64,000 nucleotides of DNA from a virus (taxonomy: Duplodnaviria > Heunggongvirae > Uroviricota > Caudoviricetes): positions 13,160-77,159 of the IMG/VR virus record IMGVR_UViG_3300035502_000924. The stretch is one strand, 5' to 3'. The position numbers were made by a program, and so were the translations under genes. Of this stretch, positions 2,947 to 62,923 are shown in pieces. A model generated the notes under the pieces. The model was not told the origin of the DNA and ran no database searches. It saw only the letters and a list, made by a program, of their open reading frames with translations. Within the stretch, counting starts at the first letter, position 1. The number at the start of each line of letters is the position of its first letter.

Positions 2947-2972
2947 GAGGAGATTTAATATCTCCTTTTTTA
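2947..2972 (+). terminator. rho-independent terminator
   Basis: aggagat-ttaat-atctcct followed by T6. The hairpin core is nearly the same as the terminator at 2348. Confidence 0.7.
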
Positions 2973-3121
2973 TTGTAAAAATTTATCAACTACTATATGA
3001 TGTTTTCACTAATTAAAGATGTAATGGCTTCTTACTAAAAAATATTAAAATATAGTATATTTTTATTTACTCAATATATTTTACAAATAAAAGATTTTCA
3101 TAGTAAAGGAGACATATATAT

Positions 3122-4377: not shown

Positions 4378-4402
4378 CATATAAAAGAGGTGAAAATAAA
4401 TA

Positions 4403-7400: not shown

Positions 7401-10400
7401 TTGCTGATGCACAAGATGTAACAGACCCTAATTGGGGCAAGAATATGGCTTCTGGTATGCAAAGCATACTTGATATGAAAGAAAGTATGTTTGGTAAAGG
7501 TTCAAATCTTGCAAAATATGAAGTAATGAAAACAATGCAGACAGACTTTGGTTTTAGCCAAAAACAATCTGCTGAAATGTATCATAAATTGCAAGATGGT
7601 GATATTGGAAGTCTTGAAGATTTACTTGATGAAATTGCAAATGAAGATAGTGGAGAAAGCATTGAAGAAATAAATTCAAAACTTCTTGATGAAACTGTTA
7701 AACTCGGTGGAGAAGTTGGCGGCATACAAGAGATGGTTGCCAAATTCGACTATTCTGCTGCAAAAGATGGTGTAGAAGAAATAAAAAAATTAGAGTCAAC
7801 ATTATCTGGCTTTGTAGACAGTAATATAAACGATATGCAAGAAAAGCTTGAAATTGATTATTCTGAAATGACAGAATATTTGGATAGTAAAGCTGGACAA
7901 TGGACACAAAGTCATGCAGAACTTATGAATGAACTTTCAGGTTCTTTTAAAACAATAATTGGTATACTTTGTGGACTTTTAACTTCATCAATATTTAGTA
8001 ATCTTTTTAGCGGACTTTCTAGTTTATTAAGTGGTGGCAGTTCTCTTCTTGGTTCTGCTGCTGTTGGTTCTGCTGCTACAATTGCTGCTGGTGGTGCAAT
8101 GATTGCAGCAGGTGCTGCTTGGGGTGTACACGATGCTAACAAAGCATTAGAATATGCACAAGAAAATGGTGGAGCAGAAGGAGCAGCTATGAGAGAAGGC
8201 TTTTGGAGTGGTTCTCATAGAAACGAACAAGGTTTGCACGATGGCACGAATATGGCTGCAAACGCAGGAAAATTTGCTCTTATTGGTGCAGGTATTGGTA
8301 CTTTTATTCCTGGTGTAGGTACAGTCGTTGGTGGTGCAATTGGTGCAGGTGTTGGTGCTGTCTTAGGCAGTGAAGTCTACGATACTTATGTAAATGGTAA
8401 TTCACGAGAATATAATAGAATTAGGTCTGGATATAATGAAAACAAAAATGCTTTAACTGAAAAATACATTAGTGCTGGGTACTCAGAAGAAGTTGCCCAA
8501 ACTATGTCAGATGGTTTATATAAGTTTAGTAGTGAATTAAAAGGACAAAATTCTACAACAATGGATGCTTTTGCAAGATATTATGCAGAAGCAATTGCTT
8601 CTGGAAAAACACCAGAACAAGCTATAAGTGATTTCACATCAAATATTGATGACAATGTAGATAAAATTATAACACAAATGAAAGAAGAAGGTGTAGAGGT
8701 AACTGATGAAAACGGTATTGTTACAGAAAATGGTGATACAACACAAAATCTTGTAACTGATATGAGTTCAGAACAAAACGCTCTTTTTGACAAATGGGCT
8801 GGTGCAGCAAACAAAGAAGTAGTAATGAAGGGTGGAGAATCCCTTACTTTAAAAGAAGTTGTAGAAAGTATATCAAAAGACGAATCTACGGCAGAAAAAG
8901 CAGGAACAAATGATGTAAGAAAATGGATTTTAGGAAAAGATAATCAGGCATTAGCCTCACTTAATAAGTATGGTGGAGATTATGATAAAATATTAGAAGC
9001 TGCCACAACTGGCGATAAAGGAGCAGCAAAAGGATTACAACTTGTTCAAGATGCGTTGTTTACAAGTGTAGCATTCCATTCTGCTAGTGCAAAAAAAGAT
9101 GAAAGTGATGCTTATGAGAGTTTAGTAGCTGGTGATAGAACTTTAACTGCTGTAAGAACTGGAGATATTACCAATTATGAAAGACAATATGTGACACAAG
9201 GAGAACAACAAATATCAAAAGATATTCAAGACTTAAAAAATAAAACTGTTGGTAGTACTGATTTTAACAATACTTGGAATAAATATAAGGGTGTTATTGA
9301 ACAAAACCCACTTTATAAACAAGAGTATCAAAATGCCTTAAAGAATGGTTCTACTGCTGAAGAAGCCGCAAAAAAAGCACAAGAAGCAATTCAAGAAGCA
9401 ATAAAAGATAAAGTATCTACTGAAGACCCACAAGCTTTAAGTGATATGATTGGAATTAGTGTTGCAGATGCTATGGCGGCAATAGATGACAATAACAATC
9501 CAACTCCTACAAGCACAGAACAATCTGATATGAATAAAATTTATGACCTTTGGGCAGGAATATATTCTAATGGTGGTAATTTGGAATTCGTATCTGATAA
9601 AGGAGATTATACTGCTAATGCTAATATTAGTGATATTTTTAAGGGGTTTACACAAACTTTTGATGAAAACGACACAACACTTGTAGGTAGTATTGTAAAT
9701 AGAAATAGAGACGATATTGATTATGCTTTAGAAAAAGCAGGTAGTAATACTACTACTTCCGAAGTGTTAAGTAAATATATGAAAGATGGGAATTTTGATA
9801 CAGTTTCTTTTTTAGAAAATGCAAAAAATAATGCTAATAGTGATGAAGGGATAATTTTAAAAACGTTTACAAATAATATGTTGCCAGCAGATACTAACGA
9901 TTTAACTAAGTATCGTGATTTTAAAGGTATGGGAACTGGCGAAAAAGACGGCGTAACTTTTACAGGAACTTCTGAGACTTTATCTTTAAAGCGAACACAA
10001 GACATGACAAATCTTGTAACAAATAAAAACGATAATTACGTAAGTACGGTGGACTTAAGGTCACCATTAAACACAAAAGAAGACGGTAAAAAACTTCTGG
10101 AATTATTAGGTAGTAAGATACAAGATAAAAATGGAAATGGTAATTATGATGAATTGATAGATATTCTTGAGGATGATACTGGTGAGCAATTACAAGAACT
10201 TATTAATGGAAATTTAGATATATTTACCAGTAACGAAGATTTAAAAAAGATATTAGATGACGATGGTACAATTAGCCAAAATAATTCAAAATCTATTTTA
10301 TCTTTTTTAAAAAGTATTATTGATAGTGGTATTAAGATAAAAAATATTACTAACGGGAATAACAACAATGATGGTTCAAGTGATGGTTCGGATGGTGGTA

Positions 10401-41500: not shown

Positions 41501-42231
41501 AAGTAGATACTGATGTAAATGGATTCCAAAAATATATTGATTTAGACCCCGAACGTGATAAAATTACTGAAATAGCTAGTATACATAACGAAGAAAAATT
41601 AAAAATGGAATTAAACAAATATAATAAAAATAGCATAAAAAGAATGAATGTAGAGGGTACTAAACTTATATATTTTGAAAATAATGAATTTGTTGATATA
41701 AAAGACAAAGAAACAATTACAGTATATCAAAATGGTGTTTCAGTTACTTATAATGCTTTTGATTTTCTTGAATTAAATGATGAATATGCTTATGGTATAA
41801 TATTAAATAACAATCTTATTACTTATGAAACTTCTGATATTTTTACTATTTTATATGTACCTGTTGGTCAATATGATAGTTTAAACGATAAAGAAATAAA
41901 AGAAGATTTTAATCAAGCTACAATATTTATGAGATTAGAAGATGCAAGGATAACAGACCCATTTAAATTAGCTTCAAATAATATGGGTTATACCACAGAA
42001 GAAAAAATAGAAAAACTATGTTATGGTAAGTTAATTGGTGCAAAGAAAAACTTTAGAACTGCAAATAATATTGGTTATACAATGTTAGGTACATTAAGAA
42101 CAAAATTAAATTCAATTATGACTATTGATATGTCAAGTAGAAATAACAAACCTTTAACGGAAGAAGAATTAAAATGGATAGATATAATGAACGAATATCA
42201 AGAATTAAAAGTTAATATAATAAACGAATAA
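38551..42231 (+). CDS. large baseplate or tail-fibre-associated structural protein (1226 aa)
   Basis: TTG start 7 nt after RBS aagaggtga. It follows the baseplate J gene, as gpI/XkdU-like proteins do. No catalytic motifs recognised. Confidence 0.45.
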   Translation: MNNGIRLNSFDYGINNTLRNNITSSTEPVTAYKALFEAQFDIIFGNSVSLVDGSFSGTLKGIPFKNIIDRLNFVYCVFKQEGSQTGIMSVSNGMKFCYDLSIFDSEHVNSNRTIPFYMENRKTKEVDEILNELQEQNSYFDTIMSEYISSYSQRNTFADVKRVLFMEVDFYILVINQNGSEYTDCKLYNLFEYLKECAKNTYSESTEEEFKQYELDIRNTDNTLELFNSDNYYYKLNYPNQEIFDGDILSSIVSKMENLYSTYSTNSITSIKYWLPFVSPDRFSTYVNDVYSKIEADGRKFSHYPNVVEYYYCILISRITGYLLTGNTLLSADLRLGGPNVMDIESTWARYILFHYKYDNSELTGGIRQYFAFYTFYNDNYYSAKDTSNIYIDNKFHYEDIKYLTEGNLLYDLKNDAEKNIVFTNECNYFKVYSEYESLEEGVSTQKNSNAYDEIQNMLYLLKVDTWSFKNKLFSADEDTSGLVVFKSNIKDSPSNFIKKPDYYLYSRLGNYSIDFNYLKDDEDVGDGGYSQISFYDSEESQTDKLFILWNCTTSRRLLYSHYTRSYYKFVIPNDSLGYLTYSAATEEETKLTGNLYIYFDDDLGIVYIKEHNDLSATTLKFLTNKYTSINSYFQTTIKHLLNMLPLSYNTEIIDTNFYKILRTAAIQLAETKYGLQKVKRGMWLNALDDDGIEQCDDDLLYNNFGSMIDLPKKAKWSYDQYRAMISAVYEVLIKGPNKESMQNAIKKFTGYENYLYELYKNDEYIFSNLTVDKQFRFAVQILKDLDTYDDSAEMMENVKFLLDMIKPAHTLYLIYVGLSSSETIDVTNNFTDTDFFENEMLLREATFGADVDSAFQLFPSENTLSRLLLNEDYWKNVNGWDSTYNGTTQYMWLQYVQEKLNEKNAPYRRLAVNQSKVEAIFAQDMYADLKEIYTDIRNNTYNTLKEDFEALITPQTSGEYYSLQYVTEDYHCENTLGYETHLKVDTDVNGFQKYIDLDPERDKITEIASIHNEEKLKMELNKYNKNSIKRMNVEGTKLIYFENNEFVDIKDKETITVYQNGVSVTYNAFDFLELNDEYAYGIILNNNLITYETSDIFTILYVPVGQYDSLNDKEIKEDFNQATIFMRLEDARITDPFKLASNNMGYTTEEKIEKLCYGKLIGAKKNFRTANNIGYTMLGTLRTKLNSIMTIDMSSRNNKPLTEEELKWIDIMNEYQELKVNIINE

Positions 42232-42389
42232 TTAAATGATTCTTTTTTTAGAATAAATGATTTAATGGTGGGTTTTATAGGAAAACTATCTAATAAAACT
42301 CACCATTTTATTTATATTTAAATTAAGGTATTAAGTACAAATTTCTAATATATATAAAATTAATAAAATAAAGAAGGGGGGAAATAAAT

Positions 42390-44354
42390 ATGGCTTACGA
42401 CCCAAGTTTTACAAGACCTGCTATTGGTAAGTATAGTGATGATAACGCATTTGTTTCTATTGTTGGCGGCTCTGATGCTTATTTATTAGAAGATGAAGTC
42501 AATGAAATGCAGTGGATTCAATTCAACAAAAAAAGAGAAATGATGAAACAAATGAATACCAATGGTATGATAGTTGATAAAATTAAGCAAAGAAATAGTA
42601 GTACGCCCTCATATACAATATATAAAAATAGTGAATATGCTACAAATTCTAATACATTCTTTGTTAAGAATTTTGATTATATTATAGATGGTTTGACAGC
42701 TAATATTTATGGTGCTGCATTAGCAAATAGTAATATTGATACTATTACAAGGGAAGGATATAATGAAATTGTTCTGCCTGAACCTGAAACAACATCAGAA
42801 TATTATTATGACTTTGTTTATTTAGAAGTTTATTTAAAAATAATTGATTTTACTAATGAAGCAACATCAGTTAATATTCCTACATATGGTGGTGTTAATA
42901 ATAAAACCATTTCTTTTGATATGATAGACCCAAGAATATCATTAAGAACTTCAAAAAGAGTTCAATTACAGTGGAAAATTAGTTCTACAAGATTAACAAC
43001 AGAACCTACTGTAAATAACATTGGTTCTATTATGACAAGTATCACTTCTAGCATTTCAAAAAGTAATATTAAATATGATTCAGAAGAAGAATATTATTAT
43101 TCTGAATCAACAGATGCTTCTCATTTAATAGGTGAAAGTAATGAAAAGGCAAGGATATATGCAATGCCTATGTTCTCTGTTTTAAGAACAAATTCAGCAC
43201 TTATTGAGAAAGTTAATATAACAGATTTCAGAGATACTTCAAGAAGTAAAAATTGTATGAGTATTACTGATGAAGAACTTAATAATTATATTAATAGAAT
43301 TGAAAAACTTGAAGAAATATTAAATTATGTAGTTATTTCTACAAATAATGACCAAAAAGCTTATGGATTATCAATGAATAGACAAACAAGTAGTTTTGTT
43401 GGTTCTGATTCTGTTGAAGATGGTAAAACAATAGATATGTATACTGGTAGAGAAGTAAAGGTTACTAATTATGCAGAAGATGATAAAGATAATTATGTAT
43501 TTGCTATTGTTAATTTAGGTAATCATTATTGTGGTCAGGTGGGTGAAGTTTGGTGCTATCAAAAAATAGATACAACACCATCTGTATCAAATACTTATGG
43601 TACGTATTGTGTTTGCAATTCAGGTAATAGCAGTATTTTGTTTAATGCTTTTGATTTTAATAAAAACAACCAAGAAATCACCTGTGGTATTGCGACTTCA
43701 AATGGATTAAATGGTGTTGAAATTACCATACCAAGAACATTCTTAGAAACAAATAATATTGTATCTAGTAATGCTTTGGATAAATGTATTATATATGCAA
43801 TTCCTCTTTATGAAGAAGATAAAAAACCAACAGAAGAAATTCCAAGTGTAGGTGATATCTTCTACGATTATAATGATGCTGAAAAAATTACAACTACAAG
43901 TGATACCGTTCATTTCTATTTGTTTAACTCAGGTGCAACAGGAATTCCGTTGCAATGGTTTGTATTATATACAGGTAATTCAACAAACTTATCTATGGGT
44001 AATATTATATTTGATGGTACTTCAAAAGTTGATGATGCTTTTGGTTATCATTATTGTAAAAAAGTTACAACCAATGGTTTTGGTTCAATAAATGTTTTAT
44101 TAGGAACTCCAAGAAAAAAAGATTATATGAAATATTATAATCCTAATGATGTTGATGATGGTTATTCAATTGAAAGAGTTGAACAAATGCCCAAATTGGG
44201 TGAAATATATATAGAACAAAATGATGATGTATTTATGATAAATACAAGTGGTAGAGGTATTAATGGTGATGCCGATACACAAATAAGATATTTAATATTT
44301 AAAAATGCTTATCTTTTAGCATCAGATTCTGTTGATACAGTTACAGTAATTTAA
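42390..44354 (+). CDS. putative tail fibre or receptor-binding protein (654 aa)
   Basis: Strong RBS aaggggggaa. Sits at the distal end of the baseplate module. Ser/Thr/Asn-rich. Function inferred from position only. Confidence 0.35.
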   Translation: MAYDPSFTRPAIGKYSDDNAFVSIVGGSDAYLLEDEVNEMQWIQFNKKREMMKQMNTNGMIVDKIKQRNSSTPSYTIYKNSEYATNSNTFFVKNFDYIIDGLTANIYGAALANSNIDTITREGYNEIVLPEPETTSEYYYDFVYLEVYLKIIDFTNEATSVNIPTYGGVNNKTISFDMIDPRISLRTSKRVQLQWKISSTRLTTEPTVNNIGSIMTSITSSISKSNIKYDSEEEYYYSESTDASHLIGESNEKARIYAMPMFSVLRTNSALIEKVNITDFRDTSRSKNCMSITDEELNNYINRIEKLEEILNYVVISTNNDQKAYGLSMNRQTSSFVGSDSVEDGKTIDMYTGREVKVTNYAEDDKDNYVFAIVNLGNHYCGQVGEVWCYQKIDTTPSVSNTYGTYCVCNSGNSSILFNAFDFNKNNQEITCGIATSNGLNGVEITIPRTFLETNNIVSSNALDKCIIYAIPLYEEDKKPTEEIPSVGDIFYDYNDAEKITTTSDTVHFYLFNSGATGIPLQWFVLYTGNSTNLSMGNIIFDGTSKVDDAFGYHYCKKVTTNGFGSINVLLGTPRKKDYMKYYNPNDVDDGYSIERVEQMPKLGEIYIEQNDDVFMINTSGRGINGDADTQIRYLIFKNAYLLASDSVDTVTVI

Positions 44355-44375
44355 AAGTAAAGGGGTTAAAATATA

Positions 44376-45236
44376 ATGGATAATAAAGATACATTTAAGA
44401 CACCTACTGGTCAAATAAATATGACTTTATTTAAAGGTGATTACGATATTAAGACAGGTAAAATAACTGGTGAAATTTTACAAGAAAGTGAAGACCATAA
44501 TATTATTGTAAATATGGCTTCTGTACTTATGGCAAGTAGAATGTGCCCTAAAGGTTTAACAGAAACTTCTGATACTGTCGTTGCTATTCCTTGGGTTCAG
44601 ACAGATGGTTATACAATAACAAACGCTAACGGTGAACAACAATATGTTTCTAATACTAATTCAGGTTCATCAGATGGTATTGGTGTTGTTTCTGCTTCAA
44701 CAATTGGTACTGCTTCTGCTACATCTAATTATTCAGCAACACAAGCATCATACCCTTTTGGTTATGGTTTTCAATGCCTAGCTATTGGTAATGGTGATTA
44801 TGGTATTAATACAGGTTGGTCTGATACAGAAAAGGCTACTTATTTGTTTAATCCTGAAACCAATAATCAACCTGCTGACCAAAAATTAAAAACAGGTCTT
44901 ATTCATGAAATATTTAGAAAACAGATTACAAGTTGGTCTTTCTTAGATACAGAAGGTAATGTTTCTAATACAGAAACAAATATTTTAAAATTAACTACAT
45001 TATTTACAGCTGATGAAGCACCTGGTCAATATATTGTTGAAATGGGTTTGTTTGGTGGCGATGCTAATGTAGTTGATTATAATTCTATTACTAATGCTGT
45101 TCATATTGATGAGTATTGTAAAGAAGGTAATGCAAACGGCAATAGAAAAGGTCATATGTTCAATTATAAGATTTTTAAATCTTGGAATAAAATTGAAGGT
45201 AGTTCATTATTAGTAAATTGGATTATAACATTCTAA
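44376..45236 (+). CDS. hypothetical structural protein (286 aa), possibly a fibre tip or assembly factor
   Basis: RBS aaagggg. It is the last gene of the + strand structural operon before the terminator at 45247. Confidence 0.3.
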   Translation: MDNKDTFKTPTGQINMTLFKGDYDIKTGKITGEILQESEDHNIIVNMASVLMASRMCPKGLTETSDTVVAIPWVQTDGYTITNANGEQQYVSNTNSGSSDGIGVVSASTIGTASATSNYSATQASYPFGYGFQCLAIGNGDYGINTGWSDTEKATYLFNPETNNQPADQKLKTGLIHEIFRKQITSWSFLDTEGNVSNTETNILKLTTLFTADEAPGQYIVEMGLFGGDANVVDYNSITNAVHIDEYCKEGNANGNRKGHMFNYKIFKSWNKIEGSSLLVNWIITF

Positions 45237-45246
45237 AATAATAATT

Positions 45247-45278
45247 AAAGAGGTAGAAAAAATCTACCTCTTTTTTTA
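45247..45278 (+). terminator. rho-independent terminator
   Basis: aaagaggtag-aaaaaat-ctacctcttt followed by T7. Confidence 0.75.
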
Positions 45279-45287
45279 AAAAAAGTG

Positions 45288-45316
45288 TTGACAAAACATA
45301 AAAAAAGTAGTATAAT
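45288..45316 (+). promoter_or_regulatory. consensus sigma-70/SigA-type promoter (TTGACA-17-TATAAT), cassette copy 2
   Basis: ttgacaaaacataaaaaaagtagtataat. It differs from the copy at 1362 at only 3 positions. Confidence 0.7.
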
Positions 45317-45348
45317 GTAAATACATTAAGAGATAGGAGGAATAAAGA

Positions 45349-45690
45349 ATGACAACTTCAATAAAAGATAAAGATATTATAGAATCCGAGATATATTCAA
45401 TTTTGTATGGTTATGGTGCAACTGATGATTTTATTGAAAAAGTAATTGCAAGTGGTAAATGTTACTTGTGTGATAGTGTGGAAGATTTTTGTTTTGATGT
45501 TCTTAAAGAATTTCAGCCTGAATTGTATGATGCACTTTATAAAACAGATAAAACATTAGGTGTTGCACCAATAGATTATTTTGATATAGATAAATATTTT
45601 CTTTTAATAAAAGAGAAATTTGATGAATTTTTATTCTATTCAAATCATAGTGATAGGGTTTTATTTATTGACAAGTATAGAAAGTTTTAA
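45349..45690 (+). CDS. hypothetical protein (113 aa), moron-like
   Basis: RBS ataggagga. It is framed by a consensus promoter and a bidirectional terminator. Confidence 0.5.
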   Translation: MTTSIKDKDIIESEIYSILYGYGATDDFIEKVIASGKCYLCDSVEDFCFDVLKEFQPELYDALYKTDKTLGVAPIDYFDIDKYFLLIKEKFDEFLFYSNHSDRVLFIDKYRKF

Positions 45691-45691
45691 A

Positions 45692-45722
45692 AAAGAGGTG
45701 GCATTATTTACCACCTCTTTAA
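45692..45722. terminator. bidirectional rho-independent terminator
   Basis: aaagaggtgg-cattattta-ccacctcttt with A and T runs on both sides. It separates convergent + and - strand genes. Confidence 0.7.
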
Positions 45723-45782
45723 TTATTAGAACTTAATTATTAAAAACTATTTGTTAAAAAATAATTTATTAAAAAACGATTT

Positions 45783-46061
45783 TTAAAGAAATTCTTTAGC
45801 ATCATCAATAAAATTAACAAACTTATTAAAACATTCTTTAATATTATCTAAATCATTAAGTGCGTTAATAGGAATAATAAAACCATTCTTTGAAGCACCT
45901 GAATAACCACCCTCAGTTGTTGCAATCTTAAATTGTCTTGCATTTAACTGTAATGTTCCCTTTTGCTTGTTTTCTTCTAAAGAAAATTTCCATTCTTTAT
46001 CATCACTAACTTTATAACTTGTTGAAGCTAAAGTATTAAACTTTTCATTCCAATCAGCCAT
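45783..46061 (-). CDS. hypothetical protein (92 aa)
   Basis: Strong RBS aaggag 8 nt upstream of ATG on the minus strand. It is the last gene of the minus-strand operon. Confidence 0.5.
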   Translation of the reverse strand: MADWNEKFNTLASTSYKVSDDKEWKFSLEENKQKGTLQLNARQFKIATTEGGYSGASKNGFIIPINALNDLDNIKECFNKFVNFIDDAKEFL

Positions 46062-46122
46062 TTTATTTCAACTCCTTAATTTTTATTTAATTATTTATAT
46101 TTATTTTTTTATTTTTTGTAAA

Positions 46123-48630
46123 TTACTTTTTTAATAATCTCATATCAAACTTTTTAATTTCCCAAGCTTCTTCTGTTCTATATAATTTTTCTCTTGTTCT
46201 GGCGTGTCTACGAAGCATAGGTGTATAATCTTGAAAATCAAACACAATAGCTCTTTTCTTTTCTTTACCTGTTTCAGGATTTTTATATAGTCTTAATACT
46301 CTACCCACTCTTTGAAAAGCTCTTGTGGAACTACGACCACCACCTGCTAATATCAAAATCTCTAAGTTAGGTATGTCAAGTCCTTCATCTGCTATTGTAC
46401 TACCTATTAAGATTTCTACAAAACCATCTCTTACACCTTGAATAACAGCCTTTCTTCTTACAGCATCATCCTTACCTGATAAAAATTCTACATTAGCAAT
46501 TCTAACTAATTTATCTTTACCTGTCTTATCATCAGTTACTTGAACTGCTTTTTTTACTATTTCTATCTTTTTAGATAACATTTTTAATATTGTTTCTCCG
46601 TGTTCTACTTGTTGAATTAATATTAAGATAGGTGCGTGTTTTACTTCTCTCATTTTAACTGCTATACTAACAACAATTTGATTTCTTTCTATATTATTAG
46701 CAATAGCTTCTTTATAAACTTTATTATAAGATTTACCTTGAAAAACTCTTTTGTAAGGAATAAAGTAAATAGTACAAGGCACTAAATATCCCCATTCAAT
46801 AAGTTTGCTTGCTGAAATATCATTTTCTTCTTTTCTTCTATCTAGTGCTGCTTCTAATAATAAATCAGCACCATCTTCTCTCCACGGAGTGGCTGATACA
46901 CCAATTCTATAATAAGCATTTTTAGCCCATTTAGATATTTCTACAAATGTATTAGAACCTATATGATGACATTCATCAAATAAAATCATATTAGAATCTT
47001 TAATATCTTCTTCTGTTGTTGATTGAGCAGAATAAACAGTTATATCTCTTTTCTTGTTTATGCCACCACCAACAATACCTACTTCTTCCCCTAAAAACTT
47101 TCCAATTTCATCTTTTAGCTGTGTACATAAAGTTAATTTATCAGCAAAAATTGAAACAGGTCTAACATTAAACTTATCAATTAATCCTGCCATTATAAAT
47201 GTATTATGCGTTACTATAAAATCTTTACAAATAAATGTATGTAATGGACTATCTACTGCTATACACTTCATTTCAGACTTTGTAGGTAATGGAGTTATTG
47301 AAACAATTTTTAAAGCATTATAATGATGATTTTTGCCTATTCTTCTATTCTTAAATCTTTCAGTATGTTTTTTTGATGTAAATAATTTATCATCACAGCC
47401 ACGAACATGAATATACCACGTTTTGTTTCTATATCTATCACTATTAATTGTTCTTTTATCTAATACAATTTTCGCTCTATATCCAAGACTATTTAATAAA
47501 AATTGTACATCTTCTACTAATCGTTTGCTAACGGAACAATAAGTAATATGTCCTTTACTATTTACAGTACCATCTGTATCAAATAGTCCTTGTAAAAGTG
47601 CTATTCTGTCATTAACATCAGAAAATTTATATTCTTCGGGAATAAATTTATCTTCGCTTTTAATTCTTCCAAAAACCTTATGTATATAATCTCTTAAATT
47701 ATCTTTTTTTCCACCGCAACCATATGTGTATTGAATCCTGTCTTTATGTCCATTTTTAAATTCTCCACCAAATTGTCTTGCTAAATCTTTTACTTTATTA
47801 ATTACATCTTCCTCTGTATTTGTAAAAGTAATTTGTCTTTGAGAAAAGCCACCATCGCCTAATAATGCTCCCAATAAATATGGCGGTAAAAATAAATCTT
47901 TTTTCTCAAACTGAATTGGCTTACATACGGGAATGCTTAGAACTAAATTTCTTCCTGTTTTGATTTTATGATTGTTTAATATTTCTTCAACAGTTTTTAC
48001 TTGCCATTTATTTTTTGAAAGATTGTCTCTTGTTGCAAATTTCCATAAATGATTTTTACAACATTTAATAGTTGTACCATCGTTAAATACTATTTCATAT
48101 TCTTGTTGCTCACCTTGTGGATATTCTCCGATAACAGTTGTTTTATCTCCATTTTCATCAAAAACAATACTTCCTACGTGAATATCTTTTAATGGAACAA
48201 AACCATCAGGGGTTAGAATTGGCGTATCTAAGGGAATCGACTTGCCGCCGCCCGTACTGACCCTTACTATTTCCCTGTTTGAGGCGTTATCAATTATTTT
48301 TTGTTGATAATCTCTCGCTTTTAACTCTACTTTTGAACCATCAGGTAAAGTCAAATATTCTTGTAATGCAAAATTAGCATTTTGTTCGGGTACTACTCTT
48401 GTATCTGTTATTTTATATCCAATATTATTTTCTTCTAATATTTCATATACATAATTTAATAAACCAGTATAGGTCTTTTTTGTTTTTCTATTGTACAAAT
48501 GTCTTATTTGAATATATTCACAACCAAATTCTTTTACTTCAAAACTTAATTTTTCCCATATCTTTAATTCAATATCTTTTGAAAAACCAATCAACTTTGA
48601 ATATACATTATCAATTATAATTTCTGCCAT
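46123..48630 (-). CDS. SF2 DEAH-box DNA helicase (COG1061, UvsW/XPB-like) interrupted by an intein in the Walker A P-loop
   Basis: The extein carries these motifs: I TGGGK|T (split), II DECHH, III SAT, V GSTIADEGLDIP, VI QRVGRVLR. The precursor is 835 aa and the predicted mature protein is ~489 aa. Confidence 0.8.
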   Translation of the reverse strand: MAEIIIDNVYSKLIGFSKDIELKIWEKLSFEVKEFGCEYIQIRHLYNRKTKKTYTGLLNYVYEILEENNIGYKITDTRVVPEQNANFALQEYLTLPDGSKVELKARDYQQKIIDNASNREIVRVSTGGGKSIPLDTPILTPDGFVPLKDIHVGSIVFDENGDKTTVIGEYPQGEQQEYEIVFNDGTTIKCCKNHLWKFATRDNLSKNKWQVKTVEEILNNHKIKTGRNLVLSIPVCKPIQFEKKDLFLPPYLLGALLGDGGFSQRQITFTNTEEDVINKVKDLARQFGGEFKNGHKDRIQYTYGCGGKKDNLRDYIHKVFGRIKSEDKFIPEEYKFSDVNDRIALLQGLFDTDGTVNSKGHITYCSVSKRLVEDVQFLLNSLGYRAKIVLDKRTINSDRYRNKTWYIHVRGCDDKLFTSKKHTERFKNRRIGKNHHYNALKIVSITPLPTKSEMKCIAVDSPLHTFICKDFIVTHNTFIMAGLIDKFNVRPVSIFADKLTLCTQLKDEIGKFLGEEVGIVGGGINKKRDITVYSAQSTTEEDIKDSNMILFDECHHIGSNTFVEISKWAKNAYYRIGVSATPWREDGADLLLEAALDRRKEENDISASKLIEWGYLVPCTIYFIPYKRVFQGKSYNKVYKEAIANNIERNQIVVSIAVKMREVKHAPILILIQQVEHGETILKMLSKKIEIVKKAVQVTDDKTGKDKLVRIANVEFLSGKDDAVRRKAVIQGVRDGFVEILIGSTIADEGLDIPNLEILILAGGGRSSTRAFQRVGRVLRLYKNPETGKEKKRAIVFDFQDYTPMLRRHARTREKLYRTEEAWEIKKFDMRLLKK
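47203..48240 (-). mobile_element. intein (346 aa) with a LAGLIDADG homing endonuclease domain, inserted between Lys and Thr of the helicase P-loop
   Basis: It starts with Ser (SIPLDTPILTPDGF, block A) and ends ...FIVTHN followed by the +1 Thr. There are two LAGLIDADG motifs: YLLGALLGDGGF and ALLQGLFDTDGTV. Confidence 0.8.
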
Positions 48631-48652
48631 AACTTTTTCCTTTCCTTGTAAC

Positions 48653-49063
48653 TTAACTTAAACTTAGTATTATTAATGAAATTATTAAATATGTTTGAGA
48701 TATAATAAAACGAATAAAAGAATATTTGGGATTAAATATATAATCTTCTATTCTATAACTTGTCATAAGATTTCCAAATAACATATCGTAAATTAACATA
48801 CCGCAATACAAGTAGCCTAAACAGTCGATTATTACATTAGTTATTAAATAATTTACAAATAGAATTACTAATATAAACGCAACAATAGAAGAAACATAAA
48901 TATTTGTAATTATTTCATCACTATATTCACTACTTATCATTCTATCAATATGTTTTTTTACTGATTTATCAAAACTTTCTTTATCTATTGTGCTTTTAAC
49001 ATTCATACATTTATAGATAATAAGAAAAGCAAATAACATTTTAATTAAAAACATAAACATCAT
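48653..49063 (-). CDS. small membrane protein (136 aa; about 3-4 predicted TM segments)
   Basis: Hydrophobic segments MLFAFLIIY, IVAFILVILFVNYLI and LIISLIILSL. It starts 5 nt after the MerR-like gene stop. Confidence 0.5.
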   Translation of the reverse strand: MMFMFLIKMLFAFLIIYKCMNVKSTIDKESFDKSVKKHIDRMISSEYSDEIITNIYVSSIVAFILVILFVNYLITNVIIDCLGYLYCGMLIYDMLFGNLMTSYRIEDYIFNPKYSFIRFIISQTYLIISLIILSLS

Positions 49064-49068
49064 TCTTT

Positions 49069-49440
49069 CTATATTATAATTACTTCTATTTCATCTTCAT
49101 AATGAAGAACTGTTTCAATCATATCATCATAATCATCTTCTAACCTATAAGGATAATCTTTTAATTTAACAAAACCTCTGCAATATCTAATCATAAATTC
49201 TATATCAGCCATATTAACAGTAATTCTTTGCCAGTTATAATTAAATAAATGAGTTAATAAATCTTCTAAATCTCTGCGAGTATATAACTTCCACCCGTTT
49301 TTACTTTTTCTTTCCAATCGAGGAATTACATTTCTATCTTCCCATTTTCTTATAGCCTTTGTAGTTTTATTTAATAAATTAGCTACGTCTGTTATTGTAT
49401 ATGTTTCTTGTTTTAATATTTCTAACATTTTTCTTGTCAT
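49069..49440 (-). CDS. MerR/excisionase-like HTH DNA-binding protein
   Basis: YTITDVANLLNKTTKAIRKWEDRNVIP is an N-terminal MerR-type helix-turn-helix. RBS aggtga. Confidence 0.55.
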   Translation of the reverse strand: MTRKMLEILKQETYTITDVANLLNKTTKAIRKWEDRNVIPRLERKSKNGWKLYTRRDLEDLLTHLFNYNWQRITVNMADIEFMIRYCRGFVKLKDYPYRLEDDYDDMIETVLHYEDEIEVIII

Positions 49441-49563
49441 ATTTAATCACCTAATTTATATATTGATAATTAAATGAAAAATTAAATATAAGTTAAAAAA
49501 TAATTAAGAATAGATAGGCAATATATTTATTTAAAAATATGTTCTATTTTATAAATGAGGTGA

Positions 49564-50466
49564 TTGTATATGATAAATATAACAAAATGCACAAGTACAG
49601 CTAATACAACAGTTAAAAGTAATAGAAGTATTAAGTATATTGTTATTCATTACACAGCTGGCACAAGAAGTACTGCTGGTTCTGCTAAAGCAATTGCTCA
49701 ATATTTTGGCAGAAGTTCAACAGGTGCATCAGCAGATTTTATTGTAGATGATGCTACTATTGTTCAGTTTAATCCTGACCCCAAAAATCGTTATTGCTGG
49801 TCAGTAGGTGGTAGCAAATATTCAAATCCTGCCACTTCCGTGGGTGCTACTTATTATAACAAGTGTACTAATTCTAACAGTATCAGTATTGAGATGTGTA
49901 GTAGTAAAACTAATACATCAAGTTTACTTGCCAGTGACACGGACTGGTATATTACAGATGCTACAACAAATAATGCAGTAGAATTGACAAAGTATTTGAT
50001 GAACCTTTATAATATTCCTGCAAGCAATGTTATAATGCACCACCACGTTACAGGCAAGATTTGTCCTAATCCTTGGTGTGTGAATGAGAGCAGACTTAGC
50101 AAGTGGAATGCTTTCAAAGCAAAATTAACAGGTACTACTGTTGAAAAAGAAGAAGTAAAAGAAACTAAGAAATTTATTTTTGTTAAAGCAAATATTTTAG
50201 GCAAGAGCTGTGAAATTACAGGCTTTAATGAAAATGATGAAAATTGGGTAAAAATTACTTCTATTTTAGAAGCTTTAGGCTACACAACAAAGTGGAATAA
50301 TACAAAAAAGAGAGCTATTGCTGTTAAAGACGGTAAAGAAACTTTTTTGGATATTAGAACATATATATCTGTTGATAGTATTTCTTTTGCTCCTCTTAGG
50401 GAGTTGTGTGAATTCTTGGGATTCACAGTAACTTGGAGTAAAGAAGACGGCATAATTGTAAAATAA
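49564..50466 (+). CDS. endolysin: N-acetylmuramoyl-L-alanine amidase (Amidase_2/PGRP) with a C-terminal cell-wall-binding-like domain
   Basis: YIVIHYTAG...ADFIVDD...SISIEMCSS...HHHVTGKICPNPW matches Amidase_2. A C-terminal ~90-aa domain (AVKDGKETFLDIR...LGFTVTW) is present. RBS aaatgaggtga. Confidence 0.75.
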   Translation: MYMINITKCTSTANTTVKSNRSIKYIVIHYTAGTRSTAGSAKAIAQYFGRSSTGASADFIVDDATIVQFNPDPKNRYCWSVGGSKYSNPATSVGATYYNKCTNSNSISIEMCSSKTNTSSLLASDTDWYITDATTNNAVELTKYLMNLYNIPASNVIMHHHVTGKICPNPWCVNESRLSKWNAFKAKLTGTTVEKEEVKETKKFIFVKANILGKSCEITGFNENDENWVKITSILEALGYTTKWNNTKKRAIAVKDGKETFLDIRTYISVDSISFAPLRELCEFLGFTVTWSKEDGIIVK

Positions 50467-50496
50467 AATATACTAATTACTTCGATTGAAAAAAAG

Positions 50497-50530
50497 AAAA
50501 GGACTACATTTGTTTGTAGTCCTTTTTTAT
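50497..50530 (+). terminator. rho-independent terminator
   Basis: aaaaggactaca-tttgtt-tgtagtcctttt followed by a T-run. Confidence 0.8.
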
Positions 50531-50567
50531 ATATATGTAAAGTTTTTAATTTTTGATGATTTTTAAA

Positions 50568-51104
50568 ATTATTAGTATTAATACGAAATTATAATTGATA
50601 ATGTATATTCAAAGTTAATATTTACTTTCCAGTATATTAGTATTAATACTTTATTTTTTAATAATTCAAAAACAGGTTGGGGCATATTTACTTTCCAGTA
50701 TATTAGTATTAATACAATGCAGTGTTAGACGTTGCGACGGCTAAAGTCAAATTTACTTTCCAGTATATTAGTATTAATACTCAGTTACGTTGAAGCAAGG
50801 CAATAAGTCTTTTAATTTACTTTCCAGTATATTAGTATTAATACATTTTATATTAACCTCACTTGCAACAAGCCAATATAATTTACTTTCCAGTATATTA
50901 GTATTAATACTAAATTCACCTCTTGTTACTCCTCATCATTAGTATCATTTACTTTCCAGTATATTAGTATTAATACGAAGAAATAATGTAACTTACGATA
51001 AATCTACTTTATTTACTTTCCAGTATATTAGTATTAATACTTTTCAACTGGTGTAAATGCAATATTCACAGCATATTTACTTTCCAGTATATTAGTATTA
51101 ATAC
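50568..51104 (-). CRISPR. CRISPR array: 8 perfect 30-bp repeats plus a truncated terminal repeat, with 34-36-bp spacers
   Basis: + strand repeat ATTTACTTTCCAGTATATTAGTATTAATAC at 50620, 50686, 50751, 50815, 50881, 50947, 51011 and 51075. Its reverse complement GTATTAATACTAATATACTGGAAAGTAAAT ends in GTAAAT like clostridial type I-B repeats. A 17-bp partial repeat at 50568-50584 is exactly one 35-bp spacer from repeat 1, suggesting it is the leader-distal end when read on the minus strand. An AT-rich ~230-bp candidate leader lies at 51105-51340. Confidence 0.9.
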
Positions 51105-51343
51105 CCGTTCAGTGTACAGTAGTACATTTTATTAGTATTTGAAATACTAAATCTGTCGAACCCATTGAAAAGTTAATTCCAAATATTATTTTTTATTCAT
51201 TATTTACTTTATTCTCACAAAAACATAAGTAAATAAAGTGTTTTCAAACTTTCTGTCTATCTCTTAGTAATTTTACATTATTATACATCGACAGAATTAA
51301 AAAACTAAAAAAATAAAAAGTATTTATACTATAATATTGAATT

Positions 51344-51478
51344 TGGTGAGTGGTGGGCTTCTTAGGTCAAAGCGGTGCAAGTCTTAAAGTTCTATCGCAA
51401 GTATTGAACGATATGTGAAGTGAACTACCCTCACCTTTCGGACGGTAAATCGCCCGAAGTCACCAACTAAGGGTGCTT
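51344..51478. ncRNA. candidate structured RNA or GC-rich noncoding island (unclassified)
   Basis: ~135 bp at roughly 48% GC in a ~28% GC context. Stops in all six frames. Complementary GGTGAGTGG and CCCTCACC segments enclose ~70 nt, with a TTTCGG-12 nt-CCGAAG hairpin and a cttag/ctaag long-range pair. No known RNA family recognised. Confidence 0.3.
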
Positions 51479-51671
51479 ATAAAAAATAGTTTTAAAAACT
51501 TTACAATATTATAATATAATATTTTCCTTAATTTGTCAAGTGTTTTTTGTAAAAAATTGTATTGTTAAAACGTCTCAGAATCAATTTTAAGACCTATAAC
51601 GATTTATTGTGAATAAATATTAAGTAAACTATTTATACCCTCTTAAAATTGATTTTAAAACTATTTAAACA

Positions 51672-51710
51672 ATAAAAACGTTGAGTAGAGTTACCCAACG
51701 TTTTTTTTAT
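51672..51710. terminator. bidirectional rho-independent terminator
   Basis: aaaaacgttg-agtagagttacc-caacgtttttttt. It ends the minus-strand genes and any + strand transcript arriving from the left. Confidence 0.7.
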
Positions 51711-52039
51711 TGTTGAACTTCATTATCTGTTTCTTCTGCAATTTCTCCCATTTCAGCTTTAACTGCTTCTTTATATTTATTAAAAAACATAGTACAATAA
51801 CTACCAAAGTTTGAAAAATCCGTGCCCATGCTACAATTCGGATTGAAAGGATTGTTAGAATCATTTCCTGGAAAGCAACTATCTGAAATTGTAACATTGT
51901 TTTCATTTTCAAAACTTTTAATTGCAGTAGAAAAGTTATTCATTACTCTTATTAACTCATTTCTACATAAATCAAATTGACCTTCTAATTCTTGTGTATT
52001 AATCGCAGAAGTTTTCATCAATCTTTTCATTTTTAACAA
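51707..52039 (-). CDS. hypothetical small protein; the likely true start is the ATG at 52030 (107 aa)
   Basis: RBS agagagg 9 nt before the ATG at 52030. Cys-rich (CFPGNDSNNPFNPNCS) with an acidic C-terminus. Co-oriented with, and overlapping, the end of the upstream membrane protein gene. Confidence 0.45.
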   Translation of the reverse strand: MLKMKRLMKTSAINTQELEGQFDLCRNELIRVMNNFSTAIKSFENENNVTISDSCFPGNDSNNPFNPNCSMGTDFSNFGSYCTMFFNKYKEAVKAEMGEIAEETDNEVQQ

Positions 52040-52637
52040 CCTCTCTATTGATTATTTTATAAATAAATATACTACCTAACGAATTTCCCAAAGTTACAAA
52101 TAAAATAAATGATATAGAATAAATATTTATTTTATTTGCTAAAAATATATAAAACATATCAGCAACACAGTGTTCAGCACCAATTAAAATAAATACTGCT
52201 ATACATAATATTACTGCTACTATTTTCATTATTGCTTCATTACTTTTTTTATATACTTCAACTGCAATAAATATTAAAATACCGCATAAAAATGAAAAAA
52301 ATAAAATTTCAAAAATAGTATAATTTAATTTCAACTCAACTATTGTTTCTATATTAATGGCTTTTATTTTACAAGTATTTCTATAACACAATGCTGTAAT
52401 AAAACATCCAAGCAGATTTCCTATCCATATAATTAATAATTCTAAGGAATTTTCATTCTCAGTAATATAACCAATTTTCCCTGTATACAAATCTAATTTA
52501 AAAAAAAGTATTGTTAGTAATCCTATGGAAAATAAAAAACTGCCGATAATTTTGTCAGTGGATAAGAATACGATACTTGCAATACTAATCATAATTCCTG
52601 CTAGAAATGCAGATAAAAATAAATTAAGAAATTTCAA
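51999..52637 (-). CDS. FNT-family-like (formate/nitrite transporter-like) membrane protein, short form (212 aa)
   Basis: TTG start with a strong RBS aaggggag. Six hydrophobic segments. KLDLYTGK and GAEHCVADMFY resemble the two FNT signature loops (ELFTGN and FEHSIANM). Confidence 0.45.
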   Translation of the reverse strand: MKFLNLFLSAFLAGIMISIASIVFLSTDKIIGSFLFSIGLLTILFFKLDLYTGKIGYITENENSLELLIIWIGNLLGCFITALCYRNTCKIKAINIETIVELKLNYTIFEILFFSFLCGILIFIAVEVYKKSNEAIMKIVAVILCIAVFILIGAEHCVADMFYIFLANKINIYSISFILFVTLGNSLGSIFIYKIINREVVKNEKIDENFCD

Positions 52638-52639
52638 AA

Positions 52640-53300
52640 TAATCTCCCCTTGCTAAAATTATATCTTAATTTTTATATAAAATAATTTTCAAGTTTTATA
52701 GCAAGAAAAAATAGCTAAAATGACTTCTCTATCTATATTTAAAACTTAGTTTAATTTATCAAACTTTATTTTTATTTGGACATAGTTGAAGTTTTATCTG
52801 GACACTAAATAGATAAGTAATAAATTACTTATCATCTAAATAATTTTTTATATATTAATGAAATTAATTATAAAGTAATATTAATTATAATTATATTAAA
52901 AATTTATAATATACAATAATTAATATTAGATGTAATAATTATTAGTATAAGATATACAATTTTTAATATTAAACAAAATTATAAAAAATAATTCATTAAA
53001 AAATTTATAAGATTTCAGTTTTAAAAAATATAAAGTTTTTTTATTTTTAGAAAAGATAGCAAAAAAGAAAGAACAGGAAGCGGAGAATGCTTCGCATTGC
53101 TCCGCTTAGTCACTTCGTGACTGAAATAACACTGATTTGTTTTGTTGCTTTCTTTCAAAAATAAGAATTGTTGTAATTTTACAATTTATTTAATTTACAA
53201 CCACATTTGTAATATTTTTAGTTTCCATTGAAAAAATTTTCACAAATTCATTATAATACAATCAAAAGCAAAAAAAACATAAGAAAGGTTGGTGTGAAAA
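52640..53300. promoter_or_regulatory. extremely AT-rich intergenic region with an embedded GC-rich hairpin; candidate replication origin and promoter region for the initiator gene
   Basis: About 90% A+T over 52850-53040. A GC hairpin ggaagcggag...ctccgcttag plus gtcacttcgtgac is flanked by the imperfect inverted repeat aagaaagaac/gctttctttc at 53055-53150. A TTGAAA-18-TATAAT-like promoter sits at ~53228-53262. Confidence 0.4.
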
Positions 53301-53301
53301 T

Positions 53302-60981: not shown

Positions 60982-61269
60982 ATGACAAAGAAAGAATTTG
61001 CACAGAAGGTAGCAGAAAGACTTGACACAACACAGGCAAATGCAGCAAGAAGCATTGATGCAGTTTTTGACATTCTTGCAGAAACATTAGAGGCTAATGA
61101 TACATATAGCCAGCAGGGTTTTGGTACATTCAAGACTAAGAAGCAGGATGCCGCAACAAGAAGAAATCCTGCAACAGGTGAGGTTATGGAGTGTCCTGCA
61201 AAGTATGTTCCTAAGTTTTCTTATTCACCAAAGGTTAAGACTGCAATCGCAAGCATTACAGTTGAGTAA
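60982..61269 (+). CDS. hup: HU/IHF-family nucleoid-associated DNA-binding protein
   Basis: MTKKEF...AARSIDAVFDIL...GFGTF..K....R..RNP.TGE matches the HU family fingerprint. Local GC is about 40% versus ~28% in the surroundings, consistent with highly-expressed-gene codon usage. Confidence 0.85.
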   Translation: MTKKEFAQKVAERLDTTQANAARSIDAVFDILAETLEANDTYSQQGFGTFKTKKQDAATRRNPATGEVMECPAKYVPKFSYSPKVKTAIASITVE

Positions 61270-61362: not shown

Positions 61363-62109
61363 ATGAAAATATTAAAAAGATTATTACCAATTATATTTAT
61401 TTTAATATTATGGGGTATAGGTAGTTTATTTACAAAACCTTTATTTTTACCATCGCCGATAAAAGTATTTAATACATTTATCTCTTTATTACAAAATGGT
61501 ATGCTAGTAAAAGGGTTTGTATATTCATTTATTAGAATATCTATTGCAACATTATTATCAATGTCTATAAGTGTTATTTTATCTATTTTAATTATGAATA
61601 GTAAAGTAATTGATGATTTAATGACACCTATAACGAATTTTTTAAGATATTTACCTATTACAGCATTTTATCCATTGTTAATGATGTGGTGCGGAATAAA
61701 TGAAAGAATGAAAATAAGTTTTTTATTTTTAGCAACTTTTGTTTATTTTTTACCTACATTAGTTTTAACAATGAAAGATATAGACCAAAATCTAATAGAT
61801 ACGGCATTAACAATAGGAGTTAAAAAATATCAGTTAGTATATAGAATAATCTTACCTTATTGCTTACCTGTTATTTGTAAGACTTATTTAATGATGTATG
61901 GAATTGGTTGGACTTATATAGTGATTGCTGAAACAGTAAATGCTAAGTTTGGATTAGGGCATTTAATAAATGTTGCAACGTCAAGAGGTAGAACTGACCA
62001 AGTATTTGTTGTATTGATAATAATTATTTTATTTAGTTATTTATTTGATACATTATGCTCTTATGTAATTGAAAAAATATTTAAATGGAAATATACAGAA
62101 AGGAAGTAA
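61363..62109 (+). CDS. ABC transporter permease (binding-protein-dependent, NitT/TauT-like) with no adjacent ATPase or SBP in the window
   Basis: Six TM segments. The EAA-like loop is DTALTIGVKKYQLVYRIILPYCLP. Confidence 0.6.
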   Translation: MKILKRLLPIIFILILWGIGSLFTKPLFLPSPIKVFNTFISLLQNGMLVKGFVYSFIRISIATLLSMSISVILSILIMNSKVIDDLMTPITNFLRYLPITAFYPLLMMWCGINERMKISFLFLATFVYFLPTLVLTMKDIDQNLIDTALTIGVKKYQLVYRIILPYCLPVICKTYLMMYGIGWTYIVIAETVNAKFGLGHLINVATSRGRTDQVFVVLIIIILFSYLFDTLCSYVIEKIFKWKYTERK

Positions 62110-62113
62110 TATA

Positions 62114-62923
62114 ATGAATAATAAAAACAATAAAGATAAGTTTAATTTTTTAAAATCTATAATTATTATAGGTGTTATCGTTTTAATTTTAATTATATTG
62201 TTACTTTGTTCAATAAGAGTTGTTCCTGGCGGTTCAACAGGTGTAGTAGTTAGATTAGGTGCAATACAAGAAGATACTTTAAAAGAAGGTTCAAGCTTTG
62301 TTACACCATTTATTACAAAAGTTGTTAAAATAAATAATAAAGTAGTAAGAACTGATGTAACAGGTACTTCTGCTTCTAAAGATTTACAAACAGTAACATT
62401 TACTGTATCTGTTAATTATCAAGTAATTCCTGAAAAGTCTGCTTACATATATAGAACATTAGGTGAAGATTACGAAAATGTAGCATTAAGACCTGCTGTA
62501 CAAGAATGTGTAAAGTCTGTTGTATCTAAATATACAGCAGAAGAATGTATTACTAATAGACAAGAATTAAGTACTCAAATGAAAGAGGAATTAAATCATA
62601 AAGTCTATGAGTATGGTATTGTTGTAGCAGATATAAATGTAATAAATTTTGATTTCTCAGCTGAATTTAATGCTGCAATTGAACAAAAAACTACTGCACA
62701 GCAAAACGCTTTAAAGGCTGAACAAGATTTAGCAAGAATTAAAATAGAGGGAGAACAAAAGATTGCACAGGCAGAAGCTGAAGCAAAGGCAAATGAGATT
62801 AAAAATGCTCAAATTACCGATAATACTTTAAAAATGAAGTTCATTGAAAAATGGAATGGTGAACTTCCTGCTGTTGTTGGTTCAGAGGATAATTTATTTA
62901 GTGTAGATAATTTCATAAAATAA
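62114..62923 (+). CDS. SPFH/band-7 (prohibitin/HflK-like) membrane protein
   Basis: RBS aggaag 8 nt upstream of the ATG at 62114; the table ORF starts earlier at 62069 inside the permease gene. An N-terminal TM is followed by VVPGGSTGVVVRLGAIQ...VTPFITKVVKIN, the SPFH domain core, and a C-terminal coiled-coil. Confidence 0.65.
   Translation: MNNKNNKDKFNFLKSIIIIGVIVLILIILLLCSIRVVPGGSTGVVVRLGAIQEDTLKEGSSFVTPFITKVVKINNKVVRTDVTGTSASKDLQTVTFTVSVNYQVIPEKSAYIYRTLGEDYENVALRPAVQECVKSVVSKYTAEECITNRQELSTQMKEELNHKVYEYGIVVADINVINFDFSAEFNAAIEQKTTAQQNALKAEQDLARIKIEGEQKIAQAEAEAKANEIKNAQITDNTLKMKFIEKWNGELPAVVGSEDNLFSVDNFIK

Follow-up and report, generated by a model that had tools for sequence, protein, structure and literature searches.

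The stretch of DNA analysed here, called the window, comprises 64,000 nucleotides (nt) of the Caudoviricetes record IMGVR_UViG_3300035502_000924 and carries a true, non-coding and phage-borne CRISPR array. The best explanation, to which a probability of about 60% is given, is that this is a functional array without cas genes, borne by a phage-G-like megaphage of roughly 0.5 Mb that infects a low-GC (guanine-cytosine) Firmicute, probably a member of the Clostridia, and that its Cas proteins are provided in trans. The array itself, the turnover of its spacers among related phages, and the conservation of its predicted promoter, leader and leader RNA are shown by the analysis, as are the likeness of its repeat to type I-B repeats and the phage identity of the DNA.

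The array proper (Table 1) is built of eight copies of a 30-nt repeat, ATTTACTTTCCAGTATATTAGTATTAATAC, without a single mismatch, starting at 50620, 50686, 50751, 50815, 50881, 50947, 51011 and 51075 with a period of 64-66 nt. No such repeat is expected from 100 shuffles of the sequence, and no further copy with up to three mismatches was found elsewhere in the window. The seven spacers, of 36, 35, 34, 36, 36, 34 and 34 nt, are all different and unrelated to each other, so that the locus has the general make-up of a CRISPR array, namely at least three near-identical direct repeats of 23-47 nt with unique spacers of similar length. Read on the minus strand, the repeat is GTATTAATACTAATATACTGGAAAGTAAAT; beyond its last full copy the truncated repeat retains just the first 15-19 nt of this sequence (GTATTAATACTAATAATTT). 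No open reading frame (ORF) of at least 60 amino acids (aa) overlaps the array on either strand (50467-51690 checked). An initial annotation of the same DNA had described eight perfect 30-bp repeats, unique 34-36-bp spacers and a truncated terminal repeat, and had denied that the periodicity was a coding artefact; the counts, the coordinates and this denial were all confirmed. One detail is corrected: the repeat-like stretch at 51126-51147, with which the annotated range ends, belongs to the conserved leader flank and is not a decayed repeat. It was also right that spacer 2 is rich in GC (46%), but the foreign target deduced from this is weakly argued: the mean of 22 spacers of the family is 32%, barely above the element at ~27%, and the composition of spacer 2 therefore says little.

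Related loci were collected by two routes. In IMG/VR a relaxed pattern, ATTTACTTTCC-N(50-60)-ATTTACTTTCC, which places the 11-nt repeat end in two neighbouring units, recovered only one related phage contig (L003). The endolysin and transporter proteins that flank the array, used as look-up queries, led to syntenic loci in further samples (L072-L079, L085 and L086). Four sets of arrays were thereby obtained. L072 is 99.8% identical to the window over a shared 9.4 kb (window 42205-51557) and has the same array with seven spacers; L076 and L078, ~86% identical with the same gene order, have six repeats and five spacers; L075 and L086, ~87% identical and again with the same gene order, have three repeats and two spacers; L003 has the array module alone in common with the window, i.e., the repeats and 392 bp of flank at 90% identity, and holds nine repeats and eight spacers. 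The DNA flanking the arrays of L075 and L076 is 86-88% identical to the window. Not one spacer is common to any two of the four sets (window/L072, L076/L078, L075/L086 and L003), whereas the repeats differ at 1-5 positions only, and the 12-nt 3' end of the repeat as read on the minus strand (TGGAAAGTAAAT) is constant in every full repeat with the exception of one change in the degenerate terminal repeat of L003. Spacer lengths remain within 34-37 nt across these phages, and the arrays are stable across samples, since L075 equals L086, L076 equals L078 and the window equals L072. The remnant spacer has an equivalent of only 20-21 nt in L075 and L076. Hence the spacers vary between relatives while the repeats and the leader (87-90%) are retained, as in other CRISPR arrays, and this combination of constant repeats and flank with total spacer replacement and a varying number of units is the signature of an array in use. 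Furthermore, the L003 array (11021-11573) mixes two repeat variants, one in units 2-7 and the other in units 1, 8 and 9, and its inner variant is the terminal repeat of L075 and L076, which suggests that blocks of units are exchanged between arrays by recombination.

The array is oriented on the minus strand, on which four lines of evidence agree: repeat decay, the conserved flank, the promoter and terminator, and repeat similarity. Truncated or variant repeats are found at the left end in all lineages, and in Clostridioides difficile the varying repeats are the leader-distal ones (PMC4556805). The right flank, from 51105 to ~51548, is 87-90% conserved in all four lineages. It contains the best promoter-like site of the region, both hexamers of which are invariant in the window, L003, L075, L076 and also L072; the conserved module stops ~20 nt beyond it. 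The transcript is predicted to start near 51504, ~400 nt upstream of the first repeat. The terminator-like hairpin at the other side of the array also lies immediately after the amidase gene on the plus strand. With an AT-rich leader and a predicted promoter on its right and truncated or variant repeats on its left, the locus has the polarity of a CRISPR array.

The leader bears GACAGA/TCTGTC motifs as well as one copy of AAGTAAAT, the 3' motif of the repeat. It also has a 15-nt palindrome, AGTATTTCAAATACT (51131-51145), which begins 26 nt upstream of the first repeat and is similar to the repeat start, itself a perfect 10-bp palindrome (GTATTAATAC). In L075 and L076 the leader palindrome reads GATACTTGAAATATC, paired substitutions having retained the symmetry, and this would be consistent with a site for protein binding or for guiding integration. 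A conserved degenerate repeat in the leader is followed by a conserved 21-nt segment and then by the first repeat. Reading this repeat-like element as an analogue of a trans-activating CRISPR RNA was rejected, as it is oriented like the repeats and a class 2 effector is absent. Similarity to the leader of the C. difficile CR11 array did not rise above the shuffled background. Even L003 retains the leader and the adjoining RNA module at ~90% identity.

The promoter is separated from the AT-rich leader by a GC-richer stretch with a conserved potential to fold as a structured RNA. Compared with shuffled controls, its fold has a z-score of -5.2 on the minus strand and -1.7 on the plus strand. For the four lineages, RNAalifold gives a consensus of eight helices with 51 pairs, in which 98% of cells are paired; in five pairs both partners have changed without loss of pairing, and several G-U pairs of the fold are present on the minus strand only. 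The covariation score was reached by none of 500 column shuffles, and sliding the partners by 1-3 columns lowered pairing to 33-48%. Conservation of the fold by compensatory changes is, with four sequences, suggestive rather than conclusive. A search of Rfam 15 returned no family for the leader RNA at an expectation (E) value up to 10, and two scans of IMG/VR with motifs of this RNA returned L003 only, apart from chance matches; the element is possibly a novel RNA motif of a leader or regulatory kind. As no convincing intrinsic terminator was found between it and the array, the structured RNA is read as the 5' part of the precursor of the CRISPR RNAs (crRNAs).

The repeat was compared with the C. 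difficile 630 CR11 consensus, GTTTTAGATTAACTATATGGAATGTAAAT (taken from PMC7064742). The alignment score is 14, compared with -1.2 +/- 2.9 for 5000 shuffles, none of which reached 14; the plus-strand repeat scores 1. Of the 12 nt at the 3' end, 11 are identical (TGGAAAGTAAAT here, TGGAATGTAAAT in CR11), and of the whole repeat ~24 of 31. The type I-B array of C. pasteurianum likewise has 30-nt repeats with a TAAAT end and ~36-nt spacers (PMC4860712). Length (29-30 nt in clostridial I-B repeats), the ending ...GGAAnGTAAAT or ...TAAAT and spacers of ~34-37 nt are all found in the present array. Only in its minus-strand orientation does the repeat resemble those of the clostridial type I-B, and the initial annotation was sound in calling its reverse complement I-B in style.

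Table 1. Positions in the window of the array, its associated elements and its two flanking genes
Feature	Position	Strand	Description
Endolysin gene	49564..50466	(+)	Amidase_2 and Cu_amine_oxidN1 domains; left neighbour; anchor for finding syntenic loci
Terminator-like hairpin with T-run	50497..50526	(-)	12-pair stem; downstream of the array on the minus strand
Truncated terminal (trailer-end) repeat, AAATTATTAGTATTAATAC	50568..50587	(-)	kept in L075 and L076
Remnant spacer	50588..50619	(-)	32 nt, AT-rich; separates the truncated repeat from the last full repeat
CRISPR array proper	50620..51104	(-)	8 identical 30-nt repeats and 7 unique 34-36-nt spacers
Conserved AT-rich leader	51105..51316	(-)	~87-90% identity across 4 lineages
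Structured RNA (predicted)	51317..51502	(-)	~190 nt; first (5') part of the transcript predicted for the array; core helices at 51345-51478
Predicted sigma-70-type promoter, TTGACA-17-TATTAT	51511..51539	(-)	11/12 consensus; points into the RNA, the leader and the array
Formate/nitrite transporter family gene	51999..52637	(-)	right neighbour; second anchor

The carrier was characterized from its genes. At 4.4-45 kb the window encodes very large virion proteins, including a 2486-aa tape measure, a baseplate-J protein, an M23-peptidase protein and a tail protein that combines lysozyme, amidase and NlpC/P60 domains. Among 50,697 GenBank phage records the sole substantial matches were to Bacillus phage G (497 kb): DnaB shares 46% identity with gp226, and the baseplate wedge 35% with gp188. 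Exact copies of the two array-flanking genes occur in eight recorded contigs, of which the longest measures 502,690 bp; together with the tail, baseplate and replication genes homologous to those of phage G, this contig puts the genome above 200 kb. Judged from these homologies, the carrier is a phage-G-like megaphage of about 0.5 Mb and not a prophage of the Clostridioides type, whose mini-arrays the initial annotation had named as a precedent. The nearest bacterial relatives of the endolysin carry the labels Clostridiales or Eubacterium, and the GC content of the window is low (21-35%, typically ~27%); both suggest a clostridial host. A more distant homologue of the amidase (P0002) was discarded, as the temperate phage that encodes it is unrelated and has no array. 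Phages and plasmids searched with the locus by megablast gave no match.

Based on these findings, we infer a mechanism in which the array is transcribed on the minus strand from its strong and conserved promoter. The transcript would comprise, in order, the structured RNA of ~190 nt, the leader of ~210 nt, the eight repeats with their seven spacers, the remnant spacer and the truncated repeat, and would end at the terminator-like hairpin. Since the repeat is of the clostridial I-B kind, Cas6 with a Cascade/Cas3 set, supplied in trans, would be expected to cut this transcript into crRNAs of ~65 nt with the 5' handle AAGUAAAU and to be directed by them against DNA matching the spacers. The most likely provider of the Cas set would be the host, with another part of the phage genome as the second possibility. 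Rival phages, or other mobile elements sharing the cell, would be the likeliest targets, the benefit being their exclusion, and new spacers would be added at the leader (right-hand) end, or whole blocks of spacers swapped by recombination between arrays.

Several searches weigh against a functional array served in trans. The initial annotation was correct that no cas genes lie nearby: Pfam searches of all 34 ORFs of the window found none, within 50 kb of the array on one side and 13 kb on the other, and PADLOC on 10 ORFs and PHROGs on the unannotated ORFs gave no Cas family, a scan that covers 64 kb of a ~500-kb genome. The extra 9 kb of L072 (methyltransferases, ClpP and ClpX) holds nothing cas-like, and neither does the gene call beside the L003 array hold anything obviously so, the ORFs there having been inspected without a family-library search. 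The exact 30-mer has no match in IMG/VR, in 185,579 species genomes (GTDB, one per species) or in the metagenome contigs of JGI. The relaxed pattern occurs at 20 loci in the genomes and 48 in the metagenomes, all of them unrelated tandem repeats or unrelated arrays; it demands an exact 11-mer in two neighbouring repeats, so that host repeats differing there would escape. A cas6-cas8b-cas7-cas5-cas3 locus linked to the repeat or sharing it, which the initial annotation had proposed to seek in a host, was not found: the window has none, and the exact 30-mer or the 11-mer pair revealed no array with this repeat in the species genomes or the JGI metagenomes, searches too strict to prove absence. 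The spacer comparison it had proposed was equally fruitless: blastn of the array and the 22 family spacers at E up to 5-10 gave nothing significant in GenBank phages or PLSDB plasmids, the best match being 30/35 to a Staphylococcus phage tail gene (E = 0.7). Neither the window nor any of the fetched related loci holds a significant match to the spacers, there is no self-targeting within the window, and exact 20-22-mer cores of three spacers have no match in IMG/VR. In addition, the repeat matches no CRISPR-DR covariance model of Rfam at E up to 10, and alone it folds weakly. Because no host array with the repeat and no protospacer were found, the use of host Cas proteins as a weapon against rival phages stays an inference, if the best available.

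A broader version of this reading is put forward tentatively, and is doubtful in its full extent: the array, the ~210-nt leader, the ~190-nt RNA and the promoter would form a self-contained transferable module, the RNA would be a new regulatory leader that controls the timing of crRNA expression, and the phage lineage would be the main home of the repeat family. In fact, the module is ~90% identical in otherwise unrelated contexts, the ~13 kb of fetched L003 sequence having no similarity to the window outside the leader/RNA module and the array. The module borders a variable region or recombination junction, as its outer edge at ~51557 is the point at which the 99.8%-identical L072 switches gene block; from its position 9355 onwards, six DNA methyltransferase genes, ClpP and ClpX replace the 110-aa ORF, the transporter and the replication genes of the window. 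The RNA could then act, e.g., as a ligand- or protein-responsive attenuator, or as a stabilising or loading element. If it is true that the structured RNA regulates crRNA output, this would be a new layer of control for phage-borne CRISPR.

Alternatively, the Cas proteins may be encoded elsewhere in the same 0.5-Mb genome, with the array as one part of a split, phage-owned CRISPR-Cas system. The repeat family is missing from the species genomes and JGI contigs and known only on this phage lineage, huge phages do encode Cas effectors far from orphan arrays (PMC7162821, PMC11160803), and the portion examined is 64 kb of about 500 kb. But no cas gene was found within 50 kb of the array on one side and 13 kb on the other, in the additional L072 sequence or in the L003 gene call, phage systems usually keep the effector beside the array, and spacer turnover requires Cas1-Cas2, which such systems mostly lack (PMC7162821); a split system is judged unlikely.

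Quite unlikely, too, is an RNA anti-CRISPR of the Racr or Cracr type, in which the RNAs would protect the phage by soaking up host Cas6 or Cascade, or by redirecting it to silence host cas or toxin promoters. Phage crRNA-like arrays that hijack host Cas proteins have been described, type I-B candidates among them (bioRxiv 10.1101/2024.10.29.618823), the degenerate repeat and conserved 21-nt segment of the leader resemble a crRNA-like unit, and a strong dedicated promoter is present. However, the 21-nt segment has no second match in the window, and the upstream degenerate repeat has AATAAAAT in place of AAGTAAAT, the canonical handle of 8 nt. The spacers of Cracr arrays are copies of conserved regulatory spacers of the host, and the described arrays have 2-3 units (bioRxiv 10.1101/2024.10.29.618823), whereas the spacers here are full length (34-37 nt) and wholly different between related phages. 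Instead of 1-3 units with a conserved spacer that copies a host regulatory RNA, seven full-length spacers were found, none of them common to the lineages.

That the array is an inert passenger, which recombination brought in from a host chromosome and which has fallen out of use, is improbable. The failure to find cas genes, a host match or protospacers would fit such a relic, but all eight repeats are identical, and the promoter, leader and RNA equal or exceed the adjacent coding DNA in conservation. Compensatory changes preserve the RNA helices and the leader palindrome, spacers have turned over in every lineage, and the same array is stable across samples. Scarcely credible, finally, is that the locus is not CRISPR but a set of iterons of a nearby replication origin or a tandem-repeat coding artefact: the array lies ~2 kb from the initiator, loader, DnaB and primase genes and its repeat starts with a perfect palindrome, but in place of the regular phasing and conserved intervening DNA of iterons the spacing varies within 64-66 nt, the sequences in between are unrelated and have been exchanged wholesale in relatives, unit numbers differ (3, 6, 8 and 9), no ORF runs across the array, and the repeat matches a I-B CRISPR repeat significantly, with spacer replacement and the varying unit number excluding both iterons and a coding repeat.

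The surroundings of the array were confirmed to be those initially described, between an endolysin gene and a replication module. On the left, the truncated repeat is followed simply by the end of the gene for the Amidase_2 endolysin; rightward follow the 110-aa ORF, the formate/nitrite-transporter-like gene, the replication initiator, a DnaC-like loader, DnaB, a primase zinc-finger protein, an SbcC-like ATPase and HU. Searches for transfer RNAs and for Rfam families at gathering thresholds gave no match in the window. The 110-aa hydrophilic ORF (51707-52039, minus strand), between the leader RNA and the transporter gene, is possibly decaying; in L076 and L075 it is broken into pieces of 54 and 40 aa. 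A type I toxin-antitoxin pair beside the array, as in C. difficile, was considered and rejected, since the small ORFs are hydrophilic and in the relatives are fragments of this one ORF. The 665-nt gap between the transporter gene and the replication initiator (52638-53301), with ~20% GC, is a candidate replication origin. Beside the L003 array, six tandem ORFs of 335-443 aa (1425-8756, minus strand) have recurring motifs that by eye suggest paralogues, and a GIY-YIG-like ORF and a 230-aa ORF lie on its other side.

Further features of the carrier were recorded. An 835-aa ResIII/Helicase_C helicase (46123-48630, minus strand) is interrupted by an intein-like LAGLIDADG homing-endonuclease insert, which is lacking in the 489-aa homologue of L076 and L077. 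Host-like accessory genes of the phage include the formate/nitrite-transporter-family gene (51999-52637), HU (60982-61269), an ABC-transporter permease (61363-62109) and an SPFH/band-7 protein (62069-62923). The virion genes at 4403-32050 are exceptionally large (2486, 1225, 2683, 1355 and 1321 aa); the 1321-aa protein combines NlpC/P60, Amidase_2 and tail-lysozyme domains, and two of these five giant genes have no family match.

The Vibrio phage ICP1 uses CRISPR in conflicts between mobile elements, by means of a type I-F CRISPR-Cas system whose complete cas operon includes Cas1 and a Cas2-3 fusion. ICP1 carries its cas operon, whereas this window has none. Closer in kind are the type I-B arrays without cas genes on C. 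difficile prophages (Hargreaves 2014, PMC4173771; Boudry 2015, PMC4556805). They have in common with the present array the absence of phage cas genes, a similar repeat, a long transcribed leader with a sigma-A-type promoter (predicted here), a variant leader-distal repeat, and regulatory or DNA-binding genes nearby (here a MerR-like gene). For them, too, service by Cas proteins provided in trans has been proposed (PMC4173771). The C. difficile prophages are temperate and of ~50 kb, whereas here a megaphage is concerned, with no integrase in the window; their repeat is of 29 nt, while the one described here is of 30 nt and was found in no sequenced bacterium; and their leader is of 170-200 nt, compared with a predicted ~400 nt without sequence similarity to the CR11 leader. 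The Nostoc cyanophage N-1 (PMC4916379) is likewise a lytic-type phage with an array but no cas genes, thought to rely on host Cas proteins; its array is expressed and its repeat matched host arrays (PMC4916379), and it differs from the present one in host group and repeat family. The viral Racr and Cracr arrays (bioRxiv 10.1101/2024.10.29.618823) also consist of repeat-spacer units with their own promoter and no phage cas genes, but the spacers here are full length and hypervariable between relatives, and the units are more numerous.

The closest parallel is with the huge phages, whose compact arrays (reported median six repeats) often come without cas genes and have been proposed to use host Cas proteins against other phages (PMC7162821, PMC11160803). 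The present case agrees with them in a genome well above 200 kb, a compact array (eight repeats) and no acquisition or interference genes nearby. It differs in that the published arrays could be linked to hosts whose repeats are similar, and their spacers to targets in other phages, of which neither was found here, in that a phage-G-like lineage carries a clostridial I-B-type repeat, and in its conserved structured leader RNA, which was not found reported for those arrays. The cas-less arrays of huge phages are thought to borrow host CRISPR machinery against competitors, and well-resolved examples are few. Since orphan arrays on huge phages were already known, the finding is a documented example and not a new principle. 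Distinctive are the repeat family, so far seen on this phage lineage only, and a structured RNA that is undescribed in Rfam 15. In conclusion, four related phages with entirely different spacers, a clear orientation and a conserved promoter and leader provide a natural series, and they extend the phenomenon to phage-G-like megaphages of low-GC Firmicutes.

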